From a virus: a DNA stretch of 64,000 nucleotides. The position numbers were made by a program, and so were the translations under genes. The stretch is taken from positions 32,001 through 96,000 of the IMG/VR virus record IMGVR_UViG_3300020048_000055. One strand, given 5' to 3'. This document shows, piece by piece, positions 9,109 to 29,089 of the stretch (position 1 is the stretch's first letter; every line of letters starts with the position of its first letter). The notes under the pieces were generated by a model. The model saw nothing but the letters and a program-made list of their open reading frames with translations, did not search any database and was not told where the DNA came from.

Positions 9109-11343
9109 TTATCCAACTATTGTCCAACCTTTATCAGTTGCAATCAACCTATCTTCTGCTGTCAATAAGCTTGCTCCGTAATTTCCTGTAATTGTAATAG
9201 TTTGTGCAGTAACCGGAGAAAACAAATTATTAAAAATATCTACCAATGCACTCTTACTTAAATTACAACTTGCATATGAAATTGTAATTTTAGTGTTTAG
9301 TAAAGTTGCTTTCCCTAATGCAGTACAAGTATTAAACATCTGATAAAAGTTTGTACCTAAACTTGTATTAATAAGTGGAATCGTTTGTAAGGAAAAACAA
9401 CTCTTAAACATATAAGAAAAGTCTGTACATTTACTTGTATCAATAAGTGGAACCGTTTGTAATGACTTACAATTATAAAACATATAAGAAAAATCTGTAC
9501 CTAAACTTGTATCAAGAAGCGGAATCATTTGTAAGGAAGGACAATTATAAAACATCTGAGTAAAGTTTATACCTAAACTTGTATCGAGAAGTGGAATAGT
9601 TTGTAAGGCAGGACAACCATAAAACATCTGAGAAAAGTTTGTACCTAAACTTGTATCAATAAATGGAATCGTTCGTAATGAAAGACAACTACTAAACATA
9701 GCATAAAAGTTTATACCTAAAAGTGTATCAAGAAGTGGAATCGTTTGTAAGGCAGGACAACCATTAAACATAGAAGAAAAATCTGTACCTAAACTTGTAT
9801 TTAGAAGGGGAACCGTTTGTAATGCAGGACAACTACTAAACATATACGAAAAGTTTGTACCTAAACTTGTATCAAAAAGTGGAATCGTTTGTAAGGCAGT
9901 ACAACCAGAAAACATAGAAGAAAAGTCTGTACCTAAACTTGTATCCAGAAGTGGAATAGTTTGTAATGCTTTACAACTACCAAACATAGAATTAAAGTTT
10001 GTACCTTTACTTGTATCAATAAGTGGAATCGTTTGTAAGGCAGTACAATTATAAAACATCTGAAAAAAGTTTGTACCTAAACTTGTATTAAGAAGTGGAA
10101 TCGTTTGTAAGGAAAAACAATTAATAAACATACCAGAAAAGTATGTACCTAAACTTGTATCAAGAAGTGGAATCATTTGTAAGGCAGAACAATAAGAAAA
10201 CATAGAATAAAAATCTTTACCTTTACTTGTATTGAGAAGTGGGATAGTTTGTAAGACAGCACAACTACTAAACATAGTAGAAAAGTTTGTACCTAAATTT
10301 GTATTGAGAAGTGGAATCGTTTGTAAGGAAAAACAACTCTTAAACATCTGAGAAAAGGTTGTACCTTTACTTGTATCAATAAGTGGAACCGTTTGTAAGG
10401 AATTACAAGTATGAAACATAAAAGAAAAGTCGGTACCTAAACTTGTATTAAGGGGTGGAATCGTTTGTAATGAACTACAATTATAAAACATAGAAGAAAA
10501 GTTTGTACCTAAACTTGTATCAAGAAGTGGAATCGTTTGTAAGGCAGTACAACTACCAAACATAGAAGAAAAATCTGTACCTGAACTTGTATTTATGAGT
10601 GGAATAGCTTGTAAGGAATTACAAATATAAAACATATAAGAGAAGGTTGTACCTGAACTTGTATTTAGAAGTGGAAGCGTTTGTAATGAATTACAATTAT
10701 AAAACATAAAATAAAAATTGGTAATATTATTTAATCCTAGACTAAAAGATTCTAACAACTTTAAGTTTTGAACATTAAGTAGAGTAATTAAACTTCCATT
10801 TCCTGAAATATCCAAAAAGGAATTGTATTTACTTGGTGCTGAAGTATGAAAAACCCCTAAGTTTACTGAGGTCAAATTAAAAGTTTCTTGAGGTGTAATC
10901 GTAATTAATACCTGCTTATAACCTAATGTAGAAAGATTTCCACAAGTTGCATAGTCATATTTATGTTCAGCTTTCACCCCTGCTACAAAGTTTTCGGTAA
11001 CTCCATCGCCCCAATCCACGGAATAATCTCCTGAGATTGTAACTGCAACGAAATTTGAGTCATGATCATAAACTGGATAGAGACCGATTACTTTTTCCTC
11101 AGATTCCAAAATTGCAGGAATTGTCAACCAATCAGAGGGTCTTGAGTAAGGGGTAATATTATTAACAGTAGTTGTATATACGTCCAACCACTCAGCTTCT
11201 GTCCATTCTTTTGGAGCTGAACCATCGTCGAATTTCATAAGAGGAACATAGTCTCTCAAGATGTCAGAGGTTGTACCTAATTTTGCTTTCATCAGATTTT
11301 TCGTTTCAGTTAAATAATTCAATTTGTTCAATAATTCGCTCAT
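9109..11343 (-). CDS. BspA/DUF285-type LRR protein, paralog A (19 full 24-aa repeats)
   Basis: N-terminal LNYLTETKNLMK helix, RPSDWL, PKD-like VDWGDG...HKY, then repeats LQTIPLLDTSLGTxFxxMFxxCxx, then cap LGKATLLNTK...KGWTIVG. Confidence 0.9.
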   Translation of the reverse strand: MSELLNKLNYLTETKNLMKAKLGTTSDILRDYVPLMKFDDGSAPKEWTEAEWLDVYTTTVNNITPYSRPSDWLTIPAILESEEKVIGLYPVYDHDSNFVAVTISGDYSVDWGDGVTENFVAGVKAEHKYDYATCGNLSTLGYKQVLITITPQETFNLTSVNLGVFHTSAPSKYNSFLDISGNGSLITLLNVQNLKLLESFSLGLNNITNFYFMFYNCNSLQTLPLLNTSSGTTFSYMFYICNSLQAIPLINTSSGTDFSSMFGSCTALQTIPLLDTSLGTNFSSMFYNCSSLQTIPPLNTSLGTDFSFMFHTCNSLQTVPLIDTSKGTTFSQMFKSCFSLQTIPLLNTNLGTNFSTMFSSCAVLQTIPLLNTSKGKDFYSMFSYCSALQMIPLLDTSLGTYFSGMFINCFSLQTIPLLNTSLGTNFFQMFYNCTALQTIPLIDTSKGTNFNSMFGSCKALQTIPLLDTSLGTDFSSMFSGCTALQTIPLFDTSLGTNFSYMFSSCPALQTVPLLNTSLGTDFSSMFNGCPALQTIPLLDTLLGINFYAMFSSCLSLRTIPFIDTSLGTNFSQMFYGCPALQTIPLLDTSLGINFTQMFYNCPSLQMIPLLDTSLGTDFSYMFYNCKSLQTVPLIDTSKCTDFSYMFKSCFSLQTIPLINTSLGTNFYQMFNTCTALGKATLLNTKITISYASCNLSKSALVDIFNNLFSPVTAQTITITGNYGASLLTAEDRLIATDKGWTIVG
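9318..10720 (-). repeat. 72-bp coding tandem repeat array (LRR modules) of paralog A
   Basis: 72-nt period, e.g. 9723 to 9795. Confidence 0.9.
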
Positions 11344-11360
11344 TTGTAGCTTCCTTTATA

Positions 11361-12596
11361 TTACCAAGTAAGACCTAATAAATTACCGTACTTTTTATTT
11401 TCAACAGTAGGGGATTCATTAGCTTCATCATTATTAGTTGTACCAATTACATTATAGGTAACAACGTCCCCATTCAGGGAATACACCAAAATAGTTAGGT
11501 GGTATTCAGAAGAGGGAGTAAGTTCTTCAATTACACAGCCAGTTGTTTTGCAGTCAGTTACAACCATCTCTTTATGACCTGGTACTAAAATAACAATTTT
11601 ATTAAAGAACTGTTGGTCAGCAGGTTTCACTTTTAAGTTAACTCTTAGAGAAGTAGCAGAACCAAAAACCGGTACTGCTGAGTAGGAGTTTAATGTAACC
11701 TCAGAAGTATCAGAGAAATACCCCTTAACTATATCTATAGCGAAAGGACTTATCTCCAAACTCTTATTTTCTTTCAAGCCGTTTCTTTTAATAAACTCTG
11801 TAGAAAAAGGGTTGGACACCATATCAGAAAGGTTGTCTGTACTAGAACCGAAGTTCTTTTCACTTAAGAAGCCTAAGATAGCTTCCTCTGTAAGGGGTAC
11901 ATCATAACTATCATCTATATGATTATCATAATTGCTAAGTTTCTGTGGAAGTATTTCATCATCAATAGTTCTATCCATAAGTATTTGAGATGAGTGAACC
12001 TTTATCGTAAGCTGTATTGGAATTATACGTGACTTAGAAAGCCAATCTGCTTCATTATAGCTTGGATTATATTCTATAGTCTCGAAGGTAATAAATGTAG
12101 GAATGAGAAGTTGTTGTCTTCTCCAATTAACCGCATTATATAGCCAAGTAGGGGACTGAGGGTTTTGTTCCCAAGTAAGAATTTGTTGAGCCACCCGAGC
12201 GTCATCATCTCTTGCAAAAAAGCAAGTAGCTTTATATTCAGCTTCAACTTGCATTGAACGAATAAAGGTTCCGGTATTTACACAGTAGATACCATTAACC
12301 ATTTGACCTGCACCATTTCTGTTTTCATCTTCTTTCCAATTTGATTCTTGGTAAAAAGATATGAATGGCATATTCAAGGAAACGGGGGTTATGTCTACTG
12401 TATTTTCTTTTGTGGTATCAACCAGTTCCATTCTACGTCTAAAACACATATCATCTTTAGCGTAAACTATTCTTGTAAGGTCTTTTTGAAGAAGAACCTT
12501 AGCAAGATAATAGTTTATTGCAATTTTTGCTGAGAGGTGTATATTTACGAAAAGGTCGTGATTGTAATACTTTTCGTGCTGATATTCTATTGCCAC
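11361..12596 (-). CDS. T4 gp15-like tail terminator/neck protein with C-terminal FN3-like domain
   Basis: IVYAK...MPFISF...YKATCFFARDDDA..AQQIL resembles the gp15 family; C-terminal IEELTPSSEYHLTILVY is an FN3 signature; AAGGA RBS before GTG. Confidence 0.5.
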   Translation of the reverse strand: MAIEYQHEKYYNHDLFVNIHLSAKIAINYYLAKVLLQKDLTRIVYAKDDMCFRRRMELVDTTKENTVDITPVSLNMPFISFYQESNWKEDENRNGAGQMVNGIYCVNTGTFIRSMQVEAEYKATCFFARDDDARVAQQILTWEQNPQSPTWLYNAVNWRRQQLLIPTFITFETIEYNPSYNEADWLSKSRIIPIQLTIKVHSSQILMDRTIDDEILPQKLSNYDNHIDDSYDVPLTEEAILGFLSEKNFGSSTDNLSDMVSNPFSTEFIKRNGLKENKSLEISPFAIDIVKGYFSDTSEVTLNSYSAVPVFGSATSLRVNLKVKPADQQFFNKIVILVPGHKEMVVTDCKTTGCVIEELTPSSEYHLTILVYSLNGDVVTYNVIGTTNNDEANESPTVENKKYGNLLGLTW

Positions 12597-12608
12597 AATT
12601 AATTCCTT

Positions 12609-14696
12609 TTATCCAACGATTGTCCAACCCTTTCCAGTTGCAATTAATCTGTCCTCTGCGGTTAATAAAGATGCTTCATAGTTTCCCGTAATCGTAATAG
12701 TCTGACCAGTCACTGTTGCTAAATTAGTAAAAATATCAACCAATGCACTCTTACTTAAATTACAACTTGCATATGAAATTGTTGTTTTCGTGTTTAGTAA
12801 AGTAGCTTTTCCTAAAGAAATACAACCAAAAAACATAGAAGAAAAATTTGTACCTTTACTTGTATCAAGAAGCGGAATCGTTTGTAATGAAGAACAATAA
12901 ACAAACATACCAGTAAAATTTGTACCTTTACTTGCATCAATAGGAGGAATAGTTTGTAAAGAAGTACAACCATTAAACATATAAGAAAAGTTTGTACTAT
13001 TGCTCGTATCAAAAAGTGGAATTGTTTGTAAGGAAGAACAATTATAAAACATACCCGAAAAGTTTGTACCTAAACTTGTATCGAGAAGTGGAATCTTTTG
13101 TAAGGAAAAACAACCATTAAACATAGAATTAAAGTCCGTACCTAAACTTGTATCAAGAAGGGGAACCGTTTGTAATGAAGAACAACCATTAAGCATCTCT
13201 AAAAAACTTATTCCTTTGCTTGTATTTAGAAGTGGAATCGTTTTTAATGAAGAACAAGATTGAAAAATAGCAGTAAAATTGGTACCTAAACTTGTATCAA
13301 GAAGTGGAATAGTTTGTAAGGAATTACAACTCTGAAACATAGCAGAAAAGTTTGTACCTAAACTTGTATCAAGAAGGGGAATCGTTTGTAAGGCAGGACA
13401 ACCATTAAACATAGCAGAAAAGTCGGTACCTTTACTTGTATCAATAAGTGGAATCGTTTGTAAGGAAGCACAACCATAAAACATATAAGAAAAGTTTGTA
13501 CATTTACTTGTATTGATTAGAGGTATCTTTTGTAAGGCAGTGCAAATATAAAACATACCAGTAAAATTTGTACCTAAACTGGTATCAGTAAGTGGAATCG
13601 TTTGTAAGGAACGACAACTACTAAACATCTGAGAAAAGCTTGTACCTTTACTTGTATCGAGAAGTGGAAACGTTTGTAATGTAGTACAACTACTAAACAT
13701 ACCAGAAAAGTCTGTACCTAAACTTGTATTAAGAATTGGAACCGTTGGTAAGGCAGTACAACCATTAAACATATAAGAAAAGTCTGTACCTAAACTGGTA
13801 TCAATATGTGGAATCGTTTTTAATGAAGAACAATATTGAAAAATAGCAGTAAAATTGGTACCTAAACTTGTATCAATAAGTGGAATAGTTTGTAATGAAG
13901 AACAACCATTAAACATACCCAAAAAGTTATTACCTGAACTTGTATTAATAAGTGGAATCGTTTGTAAGGAAGTACAACTATTAAACATAGAAGTAAAGTT
14001 TGTACCTAAGGTTGTATCAAGAAGTGGAATCGTTTGTAAGGAATTACAAGCCTGAAACATCTGAGAAAAATTTATAATATTATTTAGTCCTAGACTAAAA
14101 GATTCTAACAACTTTAAGTTTTTAACAATAAGTAGAGTAATTAAACTGCCATTTCCTGAAATATCCAAAAAGGAATTAGATTTACTTGGTGCTGAAGTAT
14201 GAAAAACCCCTAAGTTTACTGAGGTCAAATTAAAAGTATCTTGAGGAGTAATCGTAATTAAAACCTGCTTGTAACCTAATGTTGACAGATTCGAGCAAGT
14301 TGTATAGTCATAACTATGTTCAGCTTTAATTCCTGCTACGAAGTTTTCAGTAACACCATCTCCCCAGTCTACGGAATAATCTCCTGATATTGTAACTGCA
14401 ACAAAATTTGAGTCATGGTCATAAATTGGATAGAGACCGATTACTTTTTCCTCAGACTCTAGAATTGCAGGAATTGTCAACCAGTCTGAGGGTCTTGAGT
14501 AAGGGGTAATATTATTAACAGTAGTTGTATATACGTCCAACCACTCAGCTTCTGTCCATTCTTTTGGAGCGGAACCGTCATCATATTTCATGAGAGGAAC
14601 GTAGTCTCTCAAGATGTCAGAGGTTGTACCTAATTTTGCTTTCATCAGATTTTTCGTTTCAGTTAAATAATTCAATTTGTTCAGTAGTTCGCTCAT
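12609..14696 (-). CDS. BspA/DUF285-type LRR protein, paralog B (17 full repeats)
   Basis: N-terminus nearly identical to paralog A; identical 5' flank TAATATAAAGGAAGCTACAA-ATG. Confidence 0.9.
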   Translation of the reverse strand: MSELLNKLNYLTETKNLMKAKLGTTSDILRDYVPLMKYDDGSAPKEWTEAEWLDVYTTTVNNITPYSRPSDWLTIPAILESEEKVIGLYPIYDHDSNFVAVTISGDYSVDWGDGVTENFVAGIKAEHSYDYTTCSNLSTLGYKQVLITITPQDTFNLTSVNLGVFHTSAPSKSNSFLDISGNGSLITLLIVKNLKLLESFSLGLNNIINFSQMFQACNSLQTIPLLDTTLGTNFTSMFNSCTSLQTIPLINTSSGNNFLGMFNGCSSLQTIPLIDTSLGTNFTAIFQYCSSLKTIPHIDTSLGTDFSYMFNGCTALPTVPILNTSLGTDFSGMFSSCTTLQTFPLLDTSKGTSFSQMFSSCRSLQTIPLTDTSLGTNFTGMFYICTALQKIPLINTSKCTNFSYMFYGCASLQTIPLIDTSKGTDFSAMFNGCPALQTIPLLDTSLGTNFSAMFQSCNSLQTIPLLDTSLGTNFTAIFQSCSSLKTIPLLNTSKGISFLEMLNGCSSLQTVPLLDTSLGTDFNSMFNGCFSLQKIPLLDTSLGTNFSGMFYNCSSLQTIPLFDTSNSTNFSYMFNGCTSLQTIPPIDASKGTNFTGMFVYCSSLQTIPLLDTSKGTNFSSMFFGCISLGKATLLNTKTTISYASCNLSKSALVDIFTNLATVTGQTITITGNYEASLLTAEDRLIATGKGWTIVG

Positions 14697-14713: not shown

Positions 14714-15226
14714 TTATTGAGTTGTTAAAGAGCCTTCTATAGAAAGAAGACCTGTTGCAGTATCTATTTTACATTCTTTAAACTTGGTATTTGTTATTAT
14801 GTTAATCTTAGTATAGACGTAGGTTGCATCTTCAAGAACGGCTTCTTTTTGAATATCTGAGCCTATCCAAAGGGACACTTTATATTGGAAGGAAAAGTCA
14901 AAAATAGGGGTAGTTCCTACGATCTTTGAGTTTATAGTTCCGTCAATTCGGGTATAAGCACTTGAATTTCCTAACAATTCTATTAATCCTGCTTCGATTA
15001 AAGGAACCAAAGTATTAGTAATTGTTAGTATACCCTGAGAAAAGCGTTGTCCGAGGTCTATAAATCCGTCATAGTTTCCAGTCTCAAACTTTATTACTAT
15101 GGGGTCTGTAGTTTTTATGGCATTTACTTCTGAGCTATCTGCAATGGAGGATTCAGTTCCGTCACTTAATTCCAGTTGTACTTGATCATCCATTTTTGTA
15201 TCAATCTGTTCCACTTCGTTTTCCAT
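14714..15226 (-). CDS. Hypothetical protein (probable start MENEVEQ at 15226)
   Basis: AGAGGAAA RBS before ATG 15226; late-type motif at 15261-15270. Confidence 0.65.
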   Translation of the reverse strand: MENEVEQIDTKMDDQVQLELSDGTESSIADSSEVNAIKTTDPIVIKFETGNYDGFIDLGQRFSQGILTITNTLVPLIEAGLIELLGNSSAYTRIDGTINSKIVGTTPIFDFSFQYKVSLWIGSDIQKEAVLEDATYVYTKINIITNTKFKECKIDTATGLLSIEGSLTTQ

Positions 15227-15294
15227 TATGTTTCCTCTTAAAAATGTTAATATATATAATAAGTTAGTTGTAAACATTAAGGATTATAAAGATT

Positions 15295-15663
15295 ATGAGT
15301 TTAAGGAAAAAGCTTTCAAGAACACAGTTTAGGGCAGATAAGATGTCCAAACGGGGTACGGGAATATTTGTAGAAACTACAAATAATATGATGTTAATTG
15401 GGGAATGTAGTTGTGGAGCGTATTTATATCATTATATAAAATCCGAACCTAACAATATATTCAATGTGTATTGTGCAAATCCTGATTGCGATATACAGGA
15501 TGCACGACAACCAAATCCAAAATCTTTCTTTTACACGGATGAAGAATTGACAAATGCTAAGGAAATAGTACTTTTCATTCAGAAAGCCCACAACAAGAAA
15601 GAATACACGGAAGAAGAACTTGCAAGTATCCCACTCCTATATGGGGTACCAAGTGGCAAGTAA
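15295..15663 (+). CDS. Zinc-finger hypothetical protein
   Basis: CSCG and CANPDC cysteine pairs. Confidence 0.6.
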   Translation: MSLRKKLSRTQFRADKMSKRGTGIFVETTNNMMLIGECSCGAYLYHYIKSEPNNIFNVYCANPDCDIQDARQPNPKSFFYTDEELTNAKEIVLFIQKAHNKKEYTEEELASIPLLYGVPSGK

Positions 15664-16477
15664 AAAGTTTTCATATTCTAGGATTGGTTGTTTTGAGGAA
15701 TGTAAACAAAAGTATCATCTTAGATATGTAAAGGGTATTGTAGTTGACCCTGCTACACAAGTGTTGTCAGACGTTACTGCAAAAGGACTTGCTTTCCATG
15801 AGTTTGCAGAACACTATGAAACTTCTTGGGATGAAGAACGCATAAATAAAGAGATGCGCTCCTACGAAGAACAATATAAAGAAGGTGCCGCTTATTTTCC
15901 GTTGGATGACAAGGTAAGAAAGCTCATTGATTTCTACAAAGTAATTGTTGAACCTTTTACTAAGACTGGAAAAGTGGAAAAAGAAACTTGGCTTAATGGA
16001 ATAATTAAGGGTGAAGCTTTCTGCGGTGCAATCGATTTGCTTATAACTCATGGTGATGGAACATATCATATCATTGATTATAAATCTGCAAAGACTGCAA
16101 CTGCATCCAATTACAAAGGTCAGCTTTTACTGTACGCATATATGCTTGCCATGGAAAAAGAAATTCCTATGGAAAACATAGATAAAAAAATTACACTTTC
16201 TGTATTTTTCCCTTTTTGCAAAGAAGAAACCTACAAGAAATGTCTTAAGTCTATAAAGTATACCTCTCAGGACGTATTGGATAATTTGGAAAAAATTACT
16301 TCAAGCGTAGATAAGATTAATACAAAAGACTGGTCAACCCACAATTCACTCGATGTAAGTCCTACCTCAACTTGTAGTTGGTGTGATTATATCGGACACC
16401 CTGAATATTGTCCTATAATGTACAAAGCAGGATGGAGAGTAAAACGTGGAACTAAGTTTATACTAAAGGATAAATAA
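15653..16477 (+). CDS. PD-(D/E)XK Cas4/AddB-like exonuclease with 4-Cys cluster
   Basis: FSYSR..FEEC...Y, G..FH, GAIDLL, IIDYKS, QLLLY, C-terminal CSWC-x8-C; probable GTG start at 15653. Confidence 0.85.
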   Translation: MASKKFSYSRIGCFEECKQKYHLRYVKGIVVDPATQVLSDVTAKGLAFHEFAEHYETSWDEERINKEMRSYEEQYKEGAAYFPLDDKVRKLIDFYKVIVEPFTKTGKVEKETWLNGIIKGEAFCGAIDLLITHGDGTYHIIDYKSAKTATASNYKGQLLLYAYMLAMEKEIPMENIDKKITLSVFFPFCKEETYKKCLKSIKYTSQDVLDNLEKITSSVDKINTKDWSTHNSLDVSPTSTCSWCDYIGHPEYCPIMYKAGWRVKRGTKFILKDK

Positions 16478-16479
16478 TT

Positions 16480-16833
16480 ATGGAAGATAAGTTTACGATA
16501 AAGCCAATAACTGCTATTCAATTAAAAAACAGTTACGAAAAGAATGGGGAATCTCCTTTTGTAGGAGGAATTATAATGATTACAACTCCTACCTGTACAA
16601 AATGCAAAGCAATTTTGAAAGATGAAGAAAAACTTAGGGAGCTTCTCCCCATTGGAATGTTCCTCTATGAATACAATGATGAAGAAGATGGGATGAAAGT
16701 TCTGATGGATATGAAACTTTCCAGTGTACCTATTATGCTGTATGTAAACACGTTTGATGATCTTAGACACTTCAGAACAATTTCTAACATCAAGGATTTG
16801 GAAAACTTTTTAGTTTCTCTCGATTCCTTGTGA
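16480..16833 (+). CDS. Thioredoxin-like protein
   Basis: TPTCTKCK CxxC motif and SVP cis-Pro motif. Confidence 0.7.
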   Translation: MEDKFTIKPITAIQLKNSYEKNGESPFVGGIIMITTPTCTKCKAILKDEEKLRELLPIGMFLYEYNDEEDGMKVLMDMKLSSVPIMLYVNTFDDLRHFRTISNIKDLENFLVSLDSL

Positions 16834-16861
16834 GTGTACTAATTAATTATAGGAGACACAT

Positions 16862-16993
16862 ATGAATGAAATTACTTTAGACGGAGTACCTGTAAGTGTA
16901 CAGCAATTGAATGAAGCGAAGTCTAACCCTACTGTTAGAATAGTAGAAGACTCACCCGGTGTTTTTAAGACATTGAAAAGGCTTCAGGGTTAA
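16862..16993 (+). CDS. Small 43-aa protein, possibly a head component
   Basis: Not in track. AGGAG RBS; MNEITLDGVPVSVQQLNEAKSNPTVRIVEDSPGVFKTLKRLQG; late-type motif at 16837. Confidence 0.65.
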   Translation: MNEITLDGVPVSVQQLNEAKSNPTVRIVEDSPGVFKTLKRLQG

Positions 16994-16999
16994 AAAATA

Positions 17000-17956
17000 A
17001 TGCTATATTCAACAATACTAATCGATGTATTCAACCTTATTCACAAAAAAAAAGAAAAAGAAACTGATGCGAAGAATATAGCTAACTCGGTTATTGACTT
17101 TATTGAGACAGTAATAAAGCCTAAACTAGAGAACACTGAATCCAAACTCTATTTACTTTTCGACCCGATGCCAGTAAGTGACTTAAATATTTCAAATCAA
17201 TTTAGAACTTTCACTACTACGAGAAACACAATTAAGTCTACTTACAAAGCTAAAAGGGAAAAAGACCCAATAATTATTGAAGTTGCAGATTTTCTCTTGA
17301 AATACTTTTCTTATAGAGACCCTGCCTATTATTTGGTAATATCTGAAAAACATGAAGCGGATGATTTTGTAGAGTCACTTGTAAAAGATTCAGGTAAAAC
17401 ATTACTTATAAGCTCAGACTTTGATTGGGCGAGATATCTTTCCTCAGAAGTGAGCATGTCAACTGGTGATATAAATCAACCATTTACTACCTCAGATTTT
17501 ATTGAGAAGTTTGGGTACTTACCTTCCATTAAAAATGTTACGGTAAACAAAGCACTCTTCGGAGACCCCTCGGATAATATTGATGGACTTTTTTCCAGTA
17601 AGTTTAAGTATAAAGAACTCGGTGAACAAGCTATGGCTTTTATCTCAAAAACAGATGAAAACTTAAATGATTTTGTTGGAAGGATTAAGGCATACACATT
17701 TAAGCAATTATTTGAGCTTAAAGTTAGAAATCCTGAGGAAGAGCTTTTCTATCAAATAAATTGTTTTGAAAAAAAGAACTTAACAACTCAATTTTTCTTA
17801 AACATTGCGTTAGTAAGAAGCTTATGTTCCGATGCTAATAAGTTTGTAAAACACTTTTCAAAAAGAGACAATGGTTTCTGTACTCTAATTGATAAGACCC
17901 TTTCTAGGGGAGAATCAAAAAAGAATACATTTAGGTTCGGAAAAGTAAAGATTTAA
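17000..17956 (+). CDS. rnh: T4 RNase H / FEN-like 5'-3' exonuclease
   Basis: LIDVFN, LLFD, YKAKR, EADD, SSDFD, GDPSDNIDG motifs. Confidence 0.85.
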   Translation: MLYSTILIDVFNLIHKKKEKETDAKNIANSVIDFIETVIKPKLENTESKLYLLFDPMPVSDLNISNQFRTFTTTRNTIKSTYKAKREKDPIIIEVADFLLKYFSYRDPAYYLVISEKHEADDFVESLVKDSGKTLLISSDFDWARYLSSEVSMSTGDINQPFTTSDFIEKFGYLPSIKNVTVNKALFGDPSDNIDGLFSSKFKYKELGEQAMAFISKTDENLNDFVGRIKAYTFKQLFELKVRNPEEELFYQINCFEKKNLTTQFFLNIALVRSLCSDANKFVKHFSKRDNGFCTLIDKTLSRGESKKNTFRFGKVKI

Positions 17957-18002
17957 TGGGATTTATGTTAATATATTATTAACTACTATGGAGGTTATTA
18001 AA

Positions 18003-18314
18003 ATGAGTACAAAAATAAGTTCAGGTAAAGTCACTCTTATCAAACATTCGGAAGAAGATATAGTAAAGCTATGCCAAAGTTTATCTGGGGATATCCTTTC
18101 TTCAGTATTGAAAAAATATAAAGAGTCCAATAAAACCATAGATATGTATGGGATGTTATCCGACACCTATGCAGATATAATTGGATTGTGCTCAAAAATG
18201 ATGAATGAAGATAATATCCTTTTTAATGAATCTTCCTTTTTTAGTGCATTATCCAGCAGGTTAGCCAGTAAGAAAACCCCTGTAACAAGGAGTTTCCCTA
18301 AAGATGGCATCTAA
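18003..18314 (+). CDS. Hypothetical protein
   Basis: GGAGG RBS before ATG 18003; overlaps next gene. Confidence 0.6.
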   Translation: MSTKISSGKVTLIKHSEEDIVKLCQSLSGDILSSVLKKYKESNKTIDMYGMLSDTYADIIGLCSKMMNEDNILFNESSFFSALSSRLASKKTPVTRSFPKDGI

Positions 18315-19323
18315 TTTATATGTAATGAGTGATGTACAGTTTCAAGCCTTGAATGGTTGGAACTATGAAATAGGAAATAAGTTTTTAGATTGGTTTGAGA
18401 CTTTAGAAGTAAAGCCTAATTCTTACTTTATACAGCTTGGAGACATGACAGAAAAAGATACAAATCCTGGTGATGTTGTACGGCAACTGGAAAGATTCTT
18501 TTCAATCTGTGCAAAGAAGTTTGTGAAGTCATATATCCTTGTAGGAAATCATGATATGAAACTTTATCATGGTAAGGTACAAATCTCCTTTGCTTTTGCC
18601 GAAGAAAAAGATAAAATTGAAGTAGTACGAGACCTTTCAAACATTGAGATTGATGGAATGAATATTCTGGCAATGCCTCATGTAAGGGTTAGGGGAAAAA
18701 CTCTCCATGAGTTTTATAATAAGAAAACCCCTGAGGAATACTTAAGCCTAATTAAAAATGGAAAAACCAAGTTTGACCTCGCTGTAGGGCATTGGCAGAA
18801 GCAGGGAGCAGAAGGTTCCCCAGAATGGATTAGGGACGGAGTAAGCACTGATAATCTTCCAGTAAACAAGTTTATGTTGGGTCATATTCATAATAGACCG
18901 GATACTGATTATCTGGGTTCAGTATGGCCCCTTAAGGTTTCAGAAGAGTTTAGTGAGTTTGGTAGGGTAATTGGATTAGTAACGAAGACTGACAAAATAG
19001 AATATTCTGAAATAGAAATTCCAAGGTTTTGTAAGTATGATACTATCACATATCCCGAGCCATTTGTAAAACCCTTAGATACTTTAGTTCATGTATATAC
19101 TGTTGAAGGTTGTAAAAATATTGGTATAGCCCAAGAGTTTTATAAAGATGTGTATATTCGGTCTACAGGTAACAATAAAAAAGAAGAGGAAGAAACAATA
19201 TCCTCTGAGGAAGACTTCCTCTTTACGGATTACTTAGATGCCTTTAACAAGTACTGTGCAGAAAAGAAACCTAAGCTAAATAGAAATGTTTTAAAAATAA
19301 TTACAAATCACTTGAAAATATAA
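18304..19323 (+). CDS. Mre11/SbcD (T4 gp47-like) metallophosphoesterase nuclease
   Basis: SD.Q, LGD, VGNHD, GH, GHIH, YLGS motifs. Confidence 0.85.
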   Translation: MASNLYVMSDVQFQALNGWNYEIGNKFLDWFETLEVKPNSYFIQLGDMTEKDTNPGDVVRQLERFFSICAKKFVKSYILVGNHDMKLYHGKVQISFAFAEEKDKIEVVRDLSNIEIDGMNILAMPHVRVRGKTLHEFYNKKTPEEYLSLIKNGKTKFDLAVGHWQKQGAEGSPEWIRDGVSTDNLPVNKFMLGHIHNRPDTDYLGSVWPLKVSEEFSEFGRVIGLVTKTDKIEYSEIEIPRFCKYDTITYPEPFVKPLDTLVHVYTVEGCKNIGIAQEFYKDVYIRSTGNNKKEEEETISSEEDFLFTDYLDAFNKYCAEKKPKLNRNVLKIITNHLKI

Positions 19324-19327
19324 TTGA

Positions 19328-19918
19328 ATGACTAATCTTATAACTGAGGTTAGTCATTTGAGTTATAATGAACAGATAATAAATACGATGGTAAAAAAAT
19401 CATTTGCACTTGATGGGGGATTTGGGTTTAAGATATCCGATCCTCCAAAGTCTGCGGCAATGAATGTTCAAAAGAATCCATTTGATGGATTTGGTGTTAT
19501 TAATACCACTCTTATAAAAGATGAAACTTATAAAAAGTTTACAAGCAACTTTATCCCCTTTTACTGGGAAGCAAAGTTTATGAAAGAGGTTTCTGCTTTC
19601 GCTCTTAAACGAATTGAAATACATCAAGCCTACTACTTAAATAACACCTTAAAACTTCCAGAAACTTTCTCTATAGTACCTCTTGGGATATACGCCAAGC
19701 GTGGAGAAGTTAGAATCTATCTGTTTGAATGGGAAGCTCTTTCTCAACTCTATGAGAATGGTTTTTCTATTCATAAGAAGTTTTTAGAAAAGTTACCTTT
19801 TAATAAAGTTGTATTAAAAGAAGGTTTATTCTCAATAGACCACATTATAACTAAAAAAACATTACTCGATTTATACGGGTATGATATTTACATGGAGAAG
19901 AAAAATGCCACGGATTAA
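19328..19918 (+). CDS. RecU-like Holliday junction resolvase
   Basis: PFDGFG...WEAK...IEIHQ..YL matches the RecU-type D..G / EAK / HQ pattern. Confidence 0.6.
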   Translation: MTNLITEVSHLSYNEQIINTMVKKSFALDGGFGFKISDPPKSAAMNVQKNPFDGFGVINTTLIKDETYKKFTSNFIPFYWEAKFMKEVSAFALKRIEIHQAYYLNNTLKLPETFSIVPLGIYAKRGEVRIYLFEWEALSQLYENGFSIHKKFLEKLPFNKVVLKEGLFSIDHIITKKTLLDLYGYDIYMEKKNATD

Positions 19919-20160: not shown

Positions 20161-22347
20161 ATGGCAACAAACAATTATATATCGGGAACAGCACCTAAAA
20201 GTGCTATCATTAAATCTACTTTTCATGATAGACTATCCTCTTTTTATGGATTCAGACAAACCACATCTGGTGGGCAAAACACTTCTCTTGAGAAAAGAAC
20301 AGGTGTAAAATTTGTAAAAGTAGACTTAAATAATCAAGCATATCGAGTACAAAATGCAAGCTTAGGAAATGTTTTTGATTCAAGACTTCTATCATCAAAA
20401 CTTGAAAAATACTTTGATGCGTGGATGTCCGAGACAAGTCTTTCCTATGATGATATTGCTGACAGACAAGCTCGTCTTAATGAACTTTCCTTCATGCAAT
20501 ACAATGAACCTTTCGTATCTCGTGTAGTTCAATTAGTGGCTGATGAAGCCACAAACTTGGATGAACAGGATAGACTTATTTCTATATCTTCTCCTAATGG
20601 AAACTTTATTGAAAAATGTTATGAACTATTCTCACAGTGGGGAATAACTCAACAACGTATCCATGGGGTAATGTGGGATCTTGAATTGTATGGAGAAGCT
20701 TTCTGGACACACAAGGTAACTCAGCGAGGGGTTGAAAGAATATTCCCTGCCAAAGTAAATCAAGTTATGGAACGTTTAGAGTTCAACCCCCTTCACATGG
20801 CAGAATACCTTTCTCAGAGAGACGGTTTTATGTCTGCCAATAAAAACCGTGGAGCTAAAGTTGAAGCCCTTCTTGCAGGTCTTAAAAACAAAGAAGATAC
20901 TTTCGATATAGATGAAAACTTTTCGGACATGTTTGATACAAAACTTCTGGGGTTTGAATTTCATGATGCAAACTATATTCCTCCTTGGGACGTTTCCCAT
21001 TTTAGATTTAATGCAGACCACTCTGAGTTTTTCCCTTATGGAAGACCCCCTCTAATAAGTTGTTTAGCACCTTTCAAACAATTATTTGCCGCCATGACGC
21101 TTCAAGGTATTGCAAGAACGATGTCTTTTCCAGTTACCTTATATAAAGTAAAAACAGTTGAAGGTATGAATCCTACAATGTCTTTTGATTATGTAAATGA
21201 AGTTAGAGAAGAATACGAAAATATTGGTGTATCACCTAATTCTACAGGGTCTGAACTTTATTCTATAAATACAAAGATGTGGGTACCGGATTCCTTACTT
21301 GATGTACAAATACTAAAATCAGAAGTAGAAATTGATGCTATTGATGATATTGCTTTGTTTCAAGACCGGGTAGCTGTAGCTACGGGTATTCCAAAAGGTT
21401 ACTTAATTCAAGATGAATCCACCTTTGGTACTTCTGCTGTTGCCCTTGTTGAACAATGTAAACCTTTTGCCAGACATGTTTTTGCTATTCAATCTGCTTT
21501 CCTTGATGGACTTGGAGAATTAATTAGATTGCATTTTGCTATTACAGGCGAGTTTGATTATAACACGCCCTTTACTTTAGCTATGAGATTTCCTTCAATA
21601 GAAATGTCAGAAGATAAACGTACCAGTAGAACCGCTTCACTGGAACTTACTTCTGCGGTTATGGATTTTATTAAAGGTGCAATTGGTATGGGAGAAGAGG
21701 ATTTGCTTCCCTCAACAGTAGCTACCGATATCATGACAAAGTATTCTTTCTTAGACCCAACCGATGTTATGAAATGGGTAAAACTAAGTGGACTTGCTAA
21801 GTTAACTTCAAGAGCTTCCGATGAAGATGGTGGAGATGGTGATGGTGGAGACGATATTGATTTTGACTTTGGAAGTGATGTAGGGGATTCAGGGGATGAC
21901 ACCAGTGCTGAAGATACTACGGATTTCGATGTGGATGAAGCAACTACTGAGGAACTGAAAGATTCTATCCGAAAAATGAAAAAAGCTACTAGACTTCGTG
22001 AAAAGAAACAACGGGTTAAAGCTTTAAGACAGCTCAAACAGAAACGGTTGAAAGAAATTTCTGAAAGATATCAAGAATCTAAAACCGACCTTTACTTTAC
22101 TCTTTTGGAAAAAGAACACATCCAAGAATGGAAAGGTGACGCAAAGCATACAAAGCTTGTTTCAAAAATAACTGAAAACTCCAATTTCTATGAATCCATT
22201 AAGATTTTTACAAATGAAAAAATGAAGAATGGTGGAAGACTTAAAGAAGAAGTTTATAGTCCAGCAGATATGATAAATGATACATTATCAGATGATTCTC
22301 CCATAGATAACTCTATCTCGGAAGCAATAAATGATATTATAGGATAA
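20161..22347 (+). CDS. gp20: T4 gp20-like portal protein with acidic, protease-site-rich C-terminal extension
   Basis: V...ADEAT, L.LYGE.F, SHFR, PYGRP, DDI..F.......IPKGYL, FAR.V..IQ motifs of T4-type portals. Confidence 0.85.
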   Translation: MATNNYISGTAPKSAIIKSTFHDRLSSFYGFRQTTSGGQNTSLEKRTGVKFVKVDLNNQAYRVQNASLGNVFDSRLLSSKLEKYFDAWMSETSLSYDDIADRQARLNELSFMQYNEPFVSRVVQLVADEATNLDEQDRLISISSPNGNFIEKCYELFSQWGITQQRIHGVMWDLELYGEAFWTHKVTQRGVERIFPAKVNQVMERLEFNPLHMAEYLSQRDGFMSANKNRGAKVEALLAGLKNKEDTFDIDENFSDMFDTKLLGFEFHDANYIPPWDVSHFRFNADHSEFFPYGRPPLISCLAPFKQLFAAMTLQGIARTMSFPVTLYKVKTVEGMNPTMSFDYVNEVREEYENIGVSPNSTGSELYSINTKMWVPDSLLDVQILKSEVEIDAIDDIALFQDRVAVATGIPKGYLIQDESTFGTSAVALVEQCKPFARHVFAIQSAFLDGLGELIRLHFAITGEFDYNTPFTLAMRFPSIEMSEDKRTSRTASLELTSAVMDFIKGAIGMGEEDLLPSTVATDIMTKYSFLDPTDVMKWVKLSGLAKLTSRASDEDGGDGDGGDDIDFDFGSDVGDSGDDTSAEDTTDFDVDEATTEELKDSIRKMKKATRLREKKQRVKALRQLKQKRLKEISERYQESKTDLYFTLLEKEHIQEWKGDAKHTKLVSKITENSNFYESIKIFTNEKMKNGGRLKEEVYSPADMINDTLSDDSPIDNSISEAINDIIG

Positions 22348-24973: not shown

Positions 24974-24987
24974 ATCGTAAGTTTTGA

Positions 24988-27138: not shown

Positions 27139-27235
27139 TTCTGTTCTCCTATTTCATACGAAGTTCATTTAATTACTTTTCACTTACGAAAGTAAACTTA
27201 TACCTATTTAGTTCAACTTTAATAGAAAGACTAAA

Positions 27236-29089
27236 TTATCCAACTATTGTCCAACCCTTATTTGTTGCAATCAATCTATCCTCTACGGTTAATAAAGATG
27301 CCCCAAAATTTCCCGTAATAGTTATTGTTTGTCCAGTGACTGGAGAAAACAAATTAGTAAAAATATCAACCAATGCACTCTTACTCAAATTACAACTTGC
27401 ATAGGAAATTGTTGTTTGCGTATTTAGTAAAGTTGCTTTCCCCAATGCAGTACAACCACCAAACATCTGAGAAAAGTTTGTCACTAAACTTGTATTAAGA
27501 AGTGGAATCGTTTGTAAGGCAGTACAATTATAAAACATCTGATAAAAGTTTGTACCTAAACTTGTATTAATAAGTGGAATTGTTTGCAATATAGTACAAC
27601 TATAAAACATCTGAGAAAAGGTTGTACCTTTATTTGTATTAAGAAGTGGAATCGTTTGTAAGACAGTACAACCATAAAACATCTGAGAAAAATTTGTACC
27701 TAAATTTGTATCCAGAAGTGGAATCGTTTGTAAGGCAGTACAATTATTAAACATATAAGAAAAAATTGTACCTTTACTTGTATTAATAAGTGGAATCGTT
27801 TGTAAGGCAGTACAACCAGAAAACATACCAGTAAAGGTTGTACCTAAATTTGTATCAAGAAGGGGAATAGTTTGTAATATAGTACAACCATTAAACATAT
27901 TAGAAAAGTTTATACCTAAACTTGTATTAATAAGTGGAATCGTTTGTAAGGCAGTACAATTATAAAACATATGAGAAAAATTTGTACCTGAAATTGTATC
28001 AATTAGTGGAATAGTTTGTAAGGAACTACAATTATTAAACATCTGGAAAAAGTTTGTACCTAAACTTGTATCAATTAGTGGAATAGTTTGTAAGGAACTA
28101 CAACCATAAAACATAGAAGAAAAGGTTGTACCTAAACTTGTATCAAGAACCGGAATAGTTTGTAAGGAACTACAACCATAAAACATAGAATTAAAAATTG
28201 TCCCTAAATTTGTATTAAGAAGGGGAATCGTTTGTAAGGAAGGACAACTCGCAATCATAGAAGAAAAGGTTGTACCTAAACTTGTATCAAGAAGCGGAAT
28301 CGTTTTTAATGAAAAACAACTCGCAAACATATTAGAAAAGTCGGTACCTAAACTGGTATTTAGAAGTGGAATCGTTTGTAATGATTTACAATTATTAAAC
28401 ATCTGGAAAAAGTTTGTACCTAAACTTGTATCAAAAAGTGGAATCGTTTGTAAGGAAGAACAACCATTAAACATAGCAGAAAAGTTTGTAATATTATTTA
28501 AGCCTAAACTAAAGGATTCTAACAACTTTAAGTTTTGAACATTAAGTAGAGTAATTAAACTACCATTTCCAGAAATGTCTAAAAAGGGATTATATTTATT
28601 TGGTGCTGAGGTGTGAAAGACCCCTAAGTTAACCGAAGTAAAATTAAAAGTTGCTTGAGGGGTAATCGTAATTAATACTTGCTTATAACCTAATGTTGAC
28701 AGATTCGAGCAAGTTGCATAGTCATAACTATGTTCAGCTTTAATTCCTGCTACGAAGTTTTCGGAAACTCCATCACCCCAGTCTACGGAATAATTTCCTG
28801 AGATTGTAACTGCAACGAAATTTGAGTCATGGTCGTAAACTGGATAGAGACCAATTACTTTTTGTTCAGATTCCAAAATTGTAGGAATTGTTAACCAATC
28901 AGCAGGTCTTTGGTAACTATTATAAACATCTAACCAATCAGCTTCGCTCCATTCTTTTGGAGCTGTTCCGTCATCATATTTCATGAGAGGAACATAGTCT
29001 CTCAAGATGTCAGAGGTTGTACCTAATTTTGCTTTCATCAGATTTTTCGTTTCAGTCAAGTAATTTAATTTATTCAGTAATTCACTCAT
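27236..29089 (-). CDS. BspA/DUF285-type LRR protein, paralog C (14 full repeats)
   Basis: Same N-terminus (7-aa deletion) and C-cap as paralogs A and B; late-type motif at 29114. Confidence 0.9.
   Translation of the reverse strand: MSELLNKLNYLTETKNLMKAKLGTTSDILRDYVPLMKYDDGTAPKEWSEADWLDVYNSYQRPADWLTIPTILESEQKVIGLYPVYDHDSNFVAVTISGNYSVDWGDGVSENFVAGIKAEHSYDYATCSNLSTLGYKQVLITITPQATFNFTSVNLGVFHTSAPNKYNPFLDISGNGSLITLLNVQNLKLLESFSLGLNNITNFSAMFNGCSSLQTIPLFDTSLGTNFFQMFNNCKSLQTIPLLNTSLGTDFSNMFASCFSLKTIPLLDTSLGTTFSSMIASCPSLQTIPLLNTNLGTIFNSMFYGCSSLQTIPVLDTSLGTTFSSMFYGCSSLQTIPLIDTSLGTNFFQMFNNCSSLQTIPLIDTISGTNFSHMFYNCTALQTIPLINTSLGINFSNMFNGCTILQTIPLLDTNLGTTFTGMFSGCTALQTIPLINTSKGTIFSYMFNNCTALQTIPLLDTNLGTNFSQMFYGCTVLQTIPLLNTNKGTTFSQMFYSCTILQTIPLINTSLGTNFYQMFYNCTALQTIPLLNTSLVTNFSQMFGGCTALGKATLLNTQTTISYASCNLSKSALVDIFTNLFSPVTGQTITITGNFGASLLTVEDRLIATNKGWTIVG

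Follow-up and report, generated by a model that had tools for sequence, protein, structure and literature searches.

A multigene family of DUF285-type leucine-rich-repeat proteins in a very large phage, probably diversified by recombination and selection

Three genes in the window analysed here, a stretch of 64,000 nucleotides from IMG/VR virus record IMGVR_UViG_3300020048_000055, encode proteins that, judged by their profile matches, are DUF285/BspA-type leucine-rich-repeat (LRR) proteins. The reading that we favor, with a probability of roughly 0.6, is that they belong to a multigene adhesin family of a very large phage with a T4-like portal, and that this family has been diversified by ordinary recombination and selection. 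The LRR proteins would be carried on the virion as accessory fibers at the neck, collar or baseplate, and several different binders per virion would broaden or hedge host recognition. Diversification would be a germline process on an evolutionary timescale, driven by the ordinary recombination of the phage together with diversifying selection, with no dedicated diversity-generating machine involved.

Gene A (9109..11343, minus strand, 744 aa; DUF285 E-value 2.3e-83) consists of an N-terminal region (10741-11343), 20 modules of 72 bp (9301-10740) and a C-cap with the stop codon (9109-9300). The corresponding parts of gene B (12609..14696, minus strand, 695 aa; E-value 1.6e-67) lie at 14094-14696, 12798-14093 (18 modules) and 12609-12797, and those of gene C (27236..29089, minus strand, 617 aa; E-value 5.5e-51) at 28508-29089, 27428-28507 (15 modules) and 27236-27427. 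Tandem Repeats Finder reports an array of period 72 in each of these open reading frames, at 9322-10723 in A (19.5 copies, 0% indels), 12813-14060 in B (17.3 copies, 1% indels) and 27449-28490 in C (14.5 copies, 0% indels). An earlier note on this DNA had described paralogs with nearly constant ends and modules of exactly 72 bp, and both descriptions hold: the N-terminal regions (201, 201 and 194 aa) are 90-95% identical as protein and 88-92.5% identical as DNA, the caps (62-63 aa) are about 89% identical, and the arrays fall into in-phase rows of 24 aa. The module counts were obtained by cutting the arrays into these rows with the degenerate first and last modules included; the 19, 17 and 14 modules given earlier are within one of ours.

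The family is also larger than the three genes first described. A fourth copy, D, lies outside the window (G000:C1:107648-108876), where its assembly breaks within the array at a contig end of the same record. Copies E, F and G and a divergent eighth member are found on two contigs other than the record, which probably belong to the same megaphage; the join between G000 and G001 is backed by a unique 54-bp overlap and is the only contig join with such backing. E, F and G could represent paralogs within one genome or homologs from co-occurring strains. The record thus holds at least four copies, and the whole genome probably seven or eight. Copies A to G carry 20, 18, 15, 11, 15, 16 and 15 modules, respectively, and every copy apart from D at its contig end is a complete open reading frame.

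All 94 interior modules of the family differ from one another (94/94 unique). They share a framework in which F9, C16 and L19 never vary and M12, F13, T3 and P23 hardly do. Entropy reaches 2.2-2.8 bits at positions 11, 14, 15 and 17, with moderate variability at positions 10 and 18; the fixed framework with hypervariable positions that had been noticed before is therefore real. So are the recurring "codon alleles": there are 27 dipeptide types at positions 10-11, 33 at positions 14-15 and 22 at positions 17-18, a few of them common. They are combined almost at random, with 91 of 94 six-position haplotypes distinct and linkage solely between adjacent codons. Ser, Asn, Tyr, Thr, Gly and Gln are abundant among the variable residues, which carry almost no charge.

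The DUF285 assignment (Pfam E-values 1e-51 to 1e-83 in a profile search) is accompanied by a sequence match in the PDB to the BspA-type LRR protein 4fs7 (E-value 2.6e-24) and to other 24-residue LRRs such as LGR4. An AlphaFold2 model of the gene C protein (pLDDT 87) comprises low-confidence helices at residues 1-58, a beta-sandwich at 60-190, and then an LRR solenoid with a cap; Foldseek returns 4fs7 as its best match, and full-length look-alikes occur in uncultured phages (TM 0.68). The beta-sandwich is PKD-like and contains a DWGDG motif, and the combination of this N-domain with DUF285 is found in more than 1,000 protein clusters. The predicted plan would thus be a short helical segment, possibly a docking or oligomerization element, a PKD-like beta-sandwich, 11-20 LRR turns of exactly 24 aa and a conserved C-cap. 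In the alignment to LGR4 with DSSP bridges, the variable positions fall in the segment that follows the second beta-ladder, while the canonical concave LxxLxLxxN strand positions (Q20, T21 and P23) are conserved. Based on the hydrophobic pattern, the DSSP bridges at module positions 8 and 21 and the LGR4 alignment, the variable residues would form one long exposed stripe on the non-concave side of the solenoid, where they could bind variable host-surface ligands, probably glycans.

Selection on these positions is strong. At codons 11, 14, 15 and 17 of the 94 modules dN is about 1.0 and dS about 0.15 (pN 0.57 vs pS 0.14), giving a pairwise omega of about 7-9, while the framework codons have a pS of 0.20 and an omega of 0.25. 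Parsimony on the tree counts nonsynonymous and synonymous changes of 60/1, 58/3, 43/1 and 50.5/2.5 at the four codons, with per-site binomial p-values down to 8.5e-06, although site-wise tests of this kind are inflated by recombination; the tree-based omega of 1.8-2.7 is lower than the pairwise one. Amino-acid changes at the four codons, and more weakly at codons 10 and 18, accumulate several-fold faster than silent ones, and therefore each module is unique. Each position uses its own synonymous codon (CAG throughout for Q11 and CAA throughout for Q20; ACA for T3 and ACG for T21), which attributes the low dS to descent, not to codon bias. Five codons (1, 8, 18, 21 and 23) hold most of the synonymous diversity, so some nucleotide-level constraint on the scaffold is possible. 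These results support a family of putative binders under focused diversification and agree with the diversifying binder proposed in the earlier note, whose suggested check, an alignment of all modules for mosaicism and per-site dN/dS, thus found the excess at the four codons and, as described below, mosaic paralogs.

We examined the genomic neighborhood for indications of where the proteins act. Genes B and A belong to a minus-strand gene string that starts with a 187-aa open reading frame (14714..15277, minus strand; no family match) and includes, between B and A in the same operon, a 411-aa open reading frame (11361..12596, minus strand) and, directly downstream of A, a 2538-aa protein (1421..9037, minus strand; no family match), presumed from its size and context to be a fiber or structural giant. 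The 411-aa protein has no Pfam or PHROG match; its structural lead in the ESM Atlas, to PF16724 clusters (TM 0.36-0.42, feature score 0.80), suggests a possible resemblance to T4 gp15, the tail-sheath stabilizer of the neck. Upstream of C lies a 706-aa protein (29184..31304, minus strand), a paralog (28% identity over 297 aa) of a 931-aa protein at 37777-40572; it forms part of a series of very large proteins encoded on the minus strand. Judged by tail-fiber N-terminal motifs, the 706-aa protein is presumably a fiber; it has no database match supporting this assignment, and none of the large neighboring proteins matches a named fiber family. A T4-like portal gene (20161..22347, plus strand; Pfam Portal_T4, E-value 2.7e-08, exceeding the cut-off) marks the surroundings as a virion structural region; it lies 5-7 kb from the LRR genes, on whose strand proteins of 700-2500 aa run. 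The motif ACTAATTA occurs 25-32 nt upstream of gene C (29114..29121, minus strand) and also precedes the portal gene (20136-20143), the 2538-aa gene (9076-9083), the 706-aa fiber-like gene (31353-31360) and copy D. Its 12 matches compare with 6.9 expected, most of them directly upstream of gene starts and correctly oriented, and it is a putative promoter.

Homologs elsewhere have similar neighbors. A distant homolog in another phage (L030) is encoded between a head-tail adaptor with a collagen-like fiber and head-closure, neck and tail-terminator genes; in Klebsiella phage ST16-OXA48phi5.4 the PKD-like and DUF285 part is fused to "tail protein I" adjoining a tail collar fiber gene; and the homolog in Synechococcus phage S-CBWM1, annotated as a putative tail protein, lies among fiber genes. 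Both here and in two other phages, the neighbors of genes with this architecture are predicted virion structural genes (neck, fiber), and the virion display suggested earlier is plausible on this ground. It is unlikely that the proteins are instead ejected or intracellular effectors, such as binders or decoys of host defense or envelope proteins, whose LRR surfaces are in an arms race with host proteins. LRRs are classic scaffolds for protein-protein interaction, virions of large phages contain many internal proteins, diversifying selection of this strength suits any host-parasite interface, and the LRR proteins have no signal peptide or recognizable fiber or baseplate attachment domain, their N-terminal 58 aa being modeled at low confidence. 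However, the architecture recurs in three independent phage contexts among neck, fiber or baseplate genes, once as a baseplate-protein fusion; the LRR genes lie between the portal and giant fiber-like genes with an upstream motif in common; and uncharged, polar and aromatic variable residues would suit glycan binding.

The paralogs have exchanged sequence. Framework dS between modules (0.23) is below the N-terminal dS between paralogs (0.30-0.49), framework identity is 0.866 within genes vs 0.867 between genes (p = 0.66), and none of the 21 gene pairs shows a register preference. All paralogs draw the scaffold codons of their modules from one pool, and positional correspondence between the arrays is wholly lost. 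In the N-terminal tree, A pairs with B and C with E, and G is an outlier; the groups in the C-terminal tree are (A,G,F) and (B,E). AU tests reject the groupings of the opposite gene end (p = 0.00036, 0.016 and 0.008). Since the two gene ends have different histories, DNA was exchanged by homologous recombination, gene conversion or unequal crossing-over. Exact shared tracts of at least 48 bp number 6 (null 0.7) and those of at least 60 bp number 2 (null 0.01); they cross module borders, and the longest, between D7 and E6, is 72 bp. The module recombination proposed earlier is thus borne out as exchange between paralogs, but not as reuse of whole modules.

Such exchange might be frequent: gene conversion among the seven or eight arrays, driven by recombination-dependent replication, could create new combinations of variable codons at a high rate within each phage population, so that sibling virions differ. 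This would be a recombination-based diversity generator independent of reverse transcriptase, and the closest defensible form of an analogy to lamprey variable lymphocyte receptors (VLRs). The single module pool, the linkage equilibrium of the three variable codon clusters, the incongruent trees of the gene ends and the shared tracts across module borders are all compatible with it; the assembly break within array D could reflect a graph branch from population variants; and a plus-strand block at 15620..19918 encodes, by PHROG matches, two exonucleases, an SbcD-like nuclease and a resolvase-like protein. We nevertheless regard it as improbable. Many long identical tracts would be expected, yet only the two of at least 60 bp occur among about 110 modules, and the silent-site difference of about 0.2 between modules is far older than an infection cycle. 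The adjacent recombination block named in the earlier note is present, but it is generic phage recombination and repair, and nothing ties it specifically to the LRR genes. In about 430 kb we found no silent cassettes or module copies outside genes, no incomplete "germline" acceptor gene, no template-like non-coding copy of the repeats and no evident dedicated diversification enzyme, and reverse transcriptase (RVT_1) had no match at E-values up to 1 in the incomplete contigs G000, G001 and G002. Together with shared tracts of at most 72 bp, this argues for recombination and diversifying selection on an evolutionary timescale; ordinary recombination with selection on virion adhesins is most likely, rather than programmed, lamprey-like assembly.

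Neutral drift of unconstrained surface residues in an old repeat array is very improbable. DUF285/PARCEL repeats in general have variable hydrophilic residues set between conserved hydrophobic ones (PMC2996958), but drift predicts an omega near 1, and the dN observed at the four codons exceeds the N-terminal dS by a factor of 2-4 and the framework dS by a factor of 4-7, with the binomial p-values given above. In the L030 array, used as a control, synonymous sites between modules are saturated (framework pS about 0.6), as expected of an old array, and those of the window's arrays are not.

Targeted hypermutation of the four codons, by a diversity-generating retroelement (DGR) or another mutator, is scarcely credible. 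It is suggested by an NNT pattern resembling AAY-templated DGR variable regions, the first two bases being variable (nucleotide diversity 0.5-0.7) and the third largely fixed (T in 318/376, or 85%; C in 1/376), and by an excess of nonsynonymous over synonymous changes of more than 20 to 1. The largely fixed third base also indicates that the variable codons are no older than the scaffold, contrary to what would be expected of old balanced alleles. Against a mutator stand the lack of a reverse transcriptase match and of a template-like repeat in the contigs searched; framework adenines (CAA, ACA, TTA, GAT) are nearly invariant, unlike in adenine-specific mutagenesis; a single TR/VR pair would not account for some 110 separate targets over 8 kb; and alleles form networks of single-step point mutations, such as GGT-AGT-AAT at codon 15. 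The earlier note had likewise set DGRs aside. The window's proteins do resemble the DGR product Mtd of Bordetella phage BPP-1 and its relatives as putative phage binders with variability at a few codons, an NNY-like codon pattern and a Ser/Tyr/Asn/Gly-rich variable surface, although on an LRR scaffold, not a C-type lectin or Ig fold.

VLRs of lamprey and hagfish are assembled somatically from an incomplete germline gene and hundreds of flanking silent cassettes with AID-like deaminases. Like the window's proteins, they have 24-residue LRR modules, constant caps, variable module number and diversity focused on a few positions per module. However, only the generic LRR fold is held in common (weak matches, E-value 1e-3), the copies here are complete genes with no cassettes in the roughly 430 kb searched, and VLR diversity lies on the concave beta-sheet, whose strand positions are conserved here; the VLR logic proposed earlier is therefore not supported.

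Plant NLR and RLP LRRs evolve by birth-and-death, unequal crossing-over, conversion and positive selection on solvent-exposed LRR positions. This family shares that evolutionary mode with them and with the Trichomonas BspA-like family (PMC2843621). In plants, however, the selected residues are the concave xxLxLxx positions, and both sets belong to cellular genomes, whereas here the whole family probably resides in one phage genome, with its scaffold homogenized across dispersed genes. The Goslar DUF7941 "fibre cloud", proposed for host recognition, likewise comprises several paralogs with a common N-module, different from the one here and reported to be exclusive to chimalliviruses, and different C-terminal binding domains including LRR and beta-helix (bioRxiv 10.64898/2026.04.21.720040); its paralogs differ by whole domains, those of the window by point-wise variation in one repeat scaffold.

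Viral DUF285 proteins are known from Aureococcus anophagefferens virus (38 genes), Vibrio jumbo phage pir03 (ORF200 and ORF287), Sphingomonas phage PAU (gp103), Klebsiella phage ST16-OXA48phi5.4 (gp35) and Synechococcus phage S-CBWM1 (a tail protein). As here, there are often several per genome, and some are annotated as tail proteins or lie among fiber genes; they are 27-33% identical to the window's proteins, have putative functions, and are described without analysis of focused positive selection, a common module pool or mosaic ends. Variable DUF285 arrays were published in 2010 as PARCELs (Roske et al., BMC Genomics 11:430, PMC2996958), where horizontal transfer and intragenomic shuffling were proposed to disperse these multigene families, and the families to serve as "reservoirs of sequence variants". 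Both have tandem arrays of variable copy number, mostly unique units, and highly variable hydrophilic positions alternating with conserved hydrophobic ones. The canonical PARCEL unit is 25 aa, not 24; its defining DNA dyad symmetry is undetectable in the window's arrays above a codon-shuffled null; and PARCEL proteins belong to cellular microbes, often as lipoproteins, whereas those studied here are phage proteins with a PKD-like N-domain and no membrane signal. This phage family with variable arrays is of a known kind, and where the PARCEL study left selection versus neutral drift open, an omega well above 1, focused on a few codons, is measured here.

The window carries three minus-strand genes for leucine-rich-repeat (LRR) proteins of the DUF285 type: A (9109-11343, 744 aa), B (12609-14696, 695 aa) and C (27236-29089, 617 aa). 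Each contains a tandem array with a period of 72 bp in which indels are essentially absent, and slicing the arrays into 24-aa rows gives 20 in-phase modules in A, 18 in B and 15 in C. The N-terminal regions (194-201 aa) of the three proteins share 90-95% identity and their caps (62-63 aa) share approximately 89%. These in-phase arrays and nearly constant ends confirm the observation of the earlier note that three open reading frames combine invariant termini with repeated modules. All three proteins score above the curated cut-off of 25 bits for Pfam DUF285 (PF03382): A at 276 bits (E = 2e-83), B at 225 bits (2e-67) and C at 172 bits (6e-51). The whole record, of which the window spans bases 32001-96000, is 108,876 bp long and rated 37% complete; it contains 17 DUF285 matches, every one of them inside A, B, C or a fourth copy, D.

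The AlphaFold2 model of C (pLDDT 87) has the LRR fold, a solenoid of LxxLxLxx(N/T)-type turns with periodic beta-bridges. In this model residues 1-58 form low-confidence helices and residues 60-190 a beta-sandwich, followed by the regular solenoid and a C-cap. The repeats align with 24-residue LRRs in the register L19-x-x-I22-x-L24-x-x-T3 and are matched in phmmer searches by the solved BspA-type LRR structure 4fs7 (E = 2.6e-24) and by LGR4 (1e-9 to 1e-12). A Foldseek search with the model also returned 4fs7 as the top PDB match, ahead of many LRR ectodomains, and in BFVD it found full-length look-alikes from uncultured phages (TM 0.68).

Gene D starts at G000:C1:107648 on the plus strand of the record (contig G000) and is interrupted by the contig end. 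Scanning IMG/VR with the N-terminal domain retrieved two other contigs, both from metagenome 3300020048: G001 (IMGVR_UViG_3300020048_000018, 178 kb), which carries genes E and F, and G002 (143 kb), which carries gene G. The 3' end of the record (G000:C1:108823-108876) and the reverse-complemented 3' end of G001 have a 54-mer in common, whose sequence is unique across the three contigs, and the join at this overlap completes D in frame as a 520-aa protein with 11 modules. Therefore, at least G000 and G001 probably belong to a single genome of about 290-430 kb, which the assembler probably broke at the LRR arrays. The three contigs have no genes in common beyond multicopy families and a few weak matches, which makes the additional contigs likely to be other parts of the same phage; G002 is probably another piece of this genome, and the GC content is 0.34 in all three. 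The best reading of E, F and G is as additional paralogs. Searches of viral and metagenome collections recovered no near-identical strains, and the metagenome scan yielded relatives at 43-47% identity only.

The 94 interior modules of the seven genes are each unique in both DNA and protein. Within the module, F9, M12, F13, C16 and L19 are fixed, and positions 10, 11, 14, 15, 17 and 18 are variable and polar, with 91 of the 94 six-position haplotypes being distinct. The variable residues are mainly S (22%), N (16%), Y (13%), T (12%), G (10%) and Q (9%), and charged residues are nearly absent; an uncharged composition of this kind would suit glycan binding. Synonymous codons are used by position: Thr3 is encoded by ACA versus ACG or ACT for Thr21, Gln11 always by CAG and Gln20 always by CAA, and Ser4 by AGT, Ser10 by TCT and Ser18 by TCC or TCA. 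Since synonymous codon choice is position-specific, the scaffold codons are identical by descent.

Selection is concentrated on a few codons. Across the 94 modules, framework sites have pS 0.20, pN 0.054, dS 0.23 and dN 0.056, with omega of 0.25, and codons 11, 14, 15 and 17 have pS 0.14, pN 0.57, dS 0.16 and dN 1.06, with omega of approximately 7; in A-C alone, omega at these four codons is approximately 9. Parsimony counts on a FastTree topology gave 60/1, 58/3, 43/1 and 50.5/2.5 nonsynonymous/synonymous changes at codons 11, 14, 15 and 17, respectively (binomial p = 8.5e-06, 0.036, 0.0025 and 4.9e-05). Of the 376 instances of these codons, 318 end in T and one in C, so the variable codons are no older than the scaffold. 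This uniformity speaks for fast turnover and against ancient balanced alleles. L030, a full-length homolog from an unrelated siphovirus-like contig, served as a control: it shares the N-helix, beta-sandwich, 24-aa LRR and cap, but the synonymous sites of its modules are saturated (framework pS of about 0.6), and therefore the signature of low dS with high dN is particular to the family of this phage and is not a property of DUF285 arrays generally.

Five lines of sequence comparison point to exchange between the paralogs. Framework dS between modules (0.23) is lower than dS between the paralogous N-terminal regions (0.30-0.49), which could not be so had the arrays predated the duplications and since evolved separately. 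Modules of one gene and modules of different genes have the same framework identity (0.866 and 0.867, respectively; permutation p = 0.66). None of the 21 gene pairs showed a preferred register or collinear arrays, including A/B and C/E, in which the N-terminal DNA is 92% identical. The two ends of the genes conflict: N-terminal DNA groups A with B and C with E and leaves G as an outlier at 81%, and in C-terminal DNA A, G and F cluster at 89-93% and B pairs with E. AU tests on the C-terminal data reject (A,B) (p = 0.00036) and (C,E) (p = 0.016), and on the N-terminal data reject (A,G) (p = 0.008). Finally, long exact in-phase tracts are modestly more numerous than a column-shuffle null predicts, with six observed against 0.7 at lengths of at least 48 bp and two against 0.01 at lengths of at least 60 bp. 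The longest of them, 72 bp shared by D and E, spans a module border, and no multi-module conversion tracts were found among the arrays. The conflicting ends are not explained by an assembly chimera, which would leave the grouped C-ends 100% identical and not at the observed 93%; only two exact tracts exceed 55 bp, neither of them in A, B or G. The variable clusters 10-11, 14-15 and 17-18 are in mutual linkage equilibrium, which either short-tract exchange or recurrent mutation under selection, or the two together, could produce. The suggestion of a diversifying and recombining family of LRR binders is thus upheld by omega of about 7-9 at four codons, by the conflicting gene ends and by a single framework pool.

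A stronger reading, to which we would give roughly one chance in ten, is that the seven or eight dispersed arrays serve as mutual donors in frequent short-tract conversion and so constitute a generator of adhesin diversity that is independent of reverse transcriptase. Conversion would then take place during recombination-dependent replication, and the virions of each burst would differ in their combinations of variable codons. The role of the codon-homogenised scaffold, and the reason for its maintenance, would be to provide homology for these exchanges.

The earlier note had also proposed assembly by module shuffling in the manner of lamprey variable lymphocyte receptors (VLRs), and this programmed form of diversification is not borne out. 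A module profile used in nhmmer searches of the three contigs matched only inside complete open reading frames, so there are no silent donor LRR cassettes there; all LRR genes are intact and none is an incomplete acceptor. The recombination nucleases in the window are generic. The location of the variable residues is different as well. Lamprey VLRs vary on the concave strand, whereas here the canonical concave strand, assigned to L19-Q-T-I22-P-L24-x-x-T3 by alignment to 24-residue LRRs, is conserved at Q20, T21 and P23. The hypervariable residues lie within segment 10-18, between the buried F9, M12, F13, C16 and L19, and DSSP places beta-bridges of the C model at module positions 21 and 8. The hypervariable residues probably form a stripe on the lateral or convex side of the solenoid. 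A diversity-generating retroelement (DGR), which the earlier note had already disfavored, is rejected: the three contigs, about 430 kb of an incomplete genome, contain no RVT_1 match at E up to 1 and no additional repeat copy that could act as a template, framework adenines are nearly invariant, and variation extends to non-A sites, unlike the adenine-only template differences of DGRs.

In A, B and C the array is preceded by a PKD-like beta-sandwich with a DWGDG motif (residues 59-194 of C, 28508-28915), which had no family match in Pfam searches. With E cut-offs of 1e-3 and 1e-10 the domain matched 1,797 and 1,194 representative clusters, respectively, and DUF285 followed it in 10 out of 10 sampled clusters. 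It seems to be a very common partner domain, N-terminal to DUF285 arrays, that has gone undescribed. An eighth family gene on G001 (G001:C1:98439-100475, minus strand, 679 aa) has only the N-terminal helix motif in common with the family (55% identity over 22 aa, E = 0.004), and repeats of the LRR_5/BspA-like type, as judged by eye, replace the beta-sandwich and DUF285 array. The N-helix may be a portable docking module.

Genes A and B are part of a tight string encoding proteins of 187 aa, B, 411 aa, A and 2538 aa, and C is flanked by genes for 706-aa and 716-aa proteins. A T4-like portal gene (20161-22347) is located 5-7 kb from the LRR genes. The 411-aa reading frame between B and A (11361-12596, minus strand, GTG start) gave weak ESM Atlas leads to the T4 gp15 tail-sheath-stabiliser (neck) family (TM 0.36-0.42). 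If this likeness is true, the LRR genes lie in a neck-gene neighborhood, as does L030, whose gene has a head-tail adaptor with a collagen-like fibre on one side and head-closure, neck, tail-terminator and major tail genes on the other. In Klebsiella phage ST16-OXA48phi5.4, the PKD-like and DUF285 part makes up the C-terminal two thirds of "tail protein I", whose gene adjoins a tail collar fibre gene, and the homolog in Synechococcus phage S-CBWM1 is a "putative tail protein" among fibre genes. Based on the structural gene neighborhood here and on the homologs in these three phages, we favor the reading that the LRR proteins are accessory adhesins carried on the virion and docked through the conserved N-terminal helix. 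An intracellular or ejected effector role is a live rival to this assignment. Virion display through an N-terminal anchor, as had been suggested from the sequence, is thus plausible in its first part from gene context, and the anchor role itself we infer.

Several features of the family are known from other DUF285 proteins. The PARCELs described in 2010 are DUF285 arrays in which hydrophobic positions are conserved and hydrophilic ones highly variable; most of their units are unique, and they form multigene "reservoirs" (PMC2996958). The LRR family here likewise matches a DUF285/TIGR02167-type HMM and has the amphipathic pattern, but its unit is 24 residues long without indels as opposed to 25 residues in PARCELs. 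Dyad symmetry in the consensus module did not exceed that of 500 codon-order shuffles (p = 0.83-0.99), in a test cruder than the MEME-based one of that paper. Among viruses, Aureococcus anophagefferens virus has 38 DUF285 genes (PMC10720644), Vibrio jumbo phage pir03 has two DUF285 ORFs (PMC7765460), and BFVD holds many viral DUF285 entries. Paralogous host-recognition proteins with a shared N-module are present in jumbo phage Goslar (bioRxiv 10.64898/2026.04.21.720040). What is new here is a quantified evolutionary mode within one phage genome and not a new kind of system. To our knowledge, the combination of a scaffold homogenised across dispersed genes, conflicting gene ends and omega well above 1 at defined sites is undocumented for DUF285 proteins.

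The family represents a clean natural "library-like" repeat protein, whose scaffold codons are fixed and in which every 24-aa turn has four variable codons of the NNT type, giving about 110 unique turns in one phage genome. Repebody and DARPin scaffolds are of interest to binder engineers, and the present scaffold could be of similar interest. If the proteins are virion adhesins, this very large phage relies on a family of LRR binders to hedge its host recognition, in place of the usual trimeric fibres or a DGR. The pattern of selected sites provides concrete residues for testing ligand specificity.

A short motif, ACTAATTA, is found approximately 20-50 nt upstream of C, D, the portal gene and the genes for the 2538-aa and 706-aa proteins. 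Sites in gene orientation, 4-50 nt upstream of starts, are at 9076-9083, 20136-20143, 29114-29121, 31353-31360, 60027-60034, 61332-61339 and 62064-62071. The motif precedes portal, fibre-like, LRR C and HNH genes, with 12 matches against 6.9 expected, and is a candidate promoter element.

The very large minus-strand proteins neighboring the LRR genes are encoded in a long run and lack a family assignment; no Pfam, PHROG or PDB sequence match would name them as fibres. Those encoded at 29184-31304, 37777-40572, 40643-41488, 41485-46104 and 46155-48215 share pairwise segments at 25-49% identity, which suggests a family of modular, fibre-like proteins named by no library. A 1691-aa protein (32698-37773, minus strand) carries a 207-bp tandem repeat in 4.5 copies (32708-33644) and Listeria-Bacteroides repeat domains (Flg_new, E = 4e-26); its 432-aa neighbor (31356-32654, minus strand) has one Flg_new domain and a similar N-terminus. 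We also observed a second pair of repeat-protein paralogs (56641-58155 and 62152-63414, both minus strand), which are 69% identical and have a homolog on G002. The pair flanks two paralogous HNH endonuclease genes (58740-60023 and 60078-61328), and its C-terminal 21-aa (63-bp) repeats, GSPQSVGGYFDCxxNQLTSLE, look like another type of LRR.
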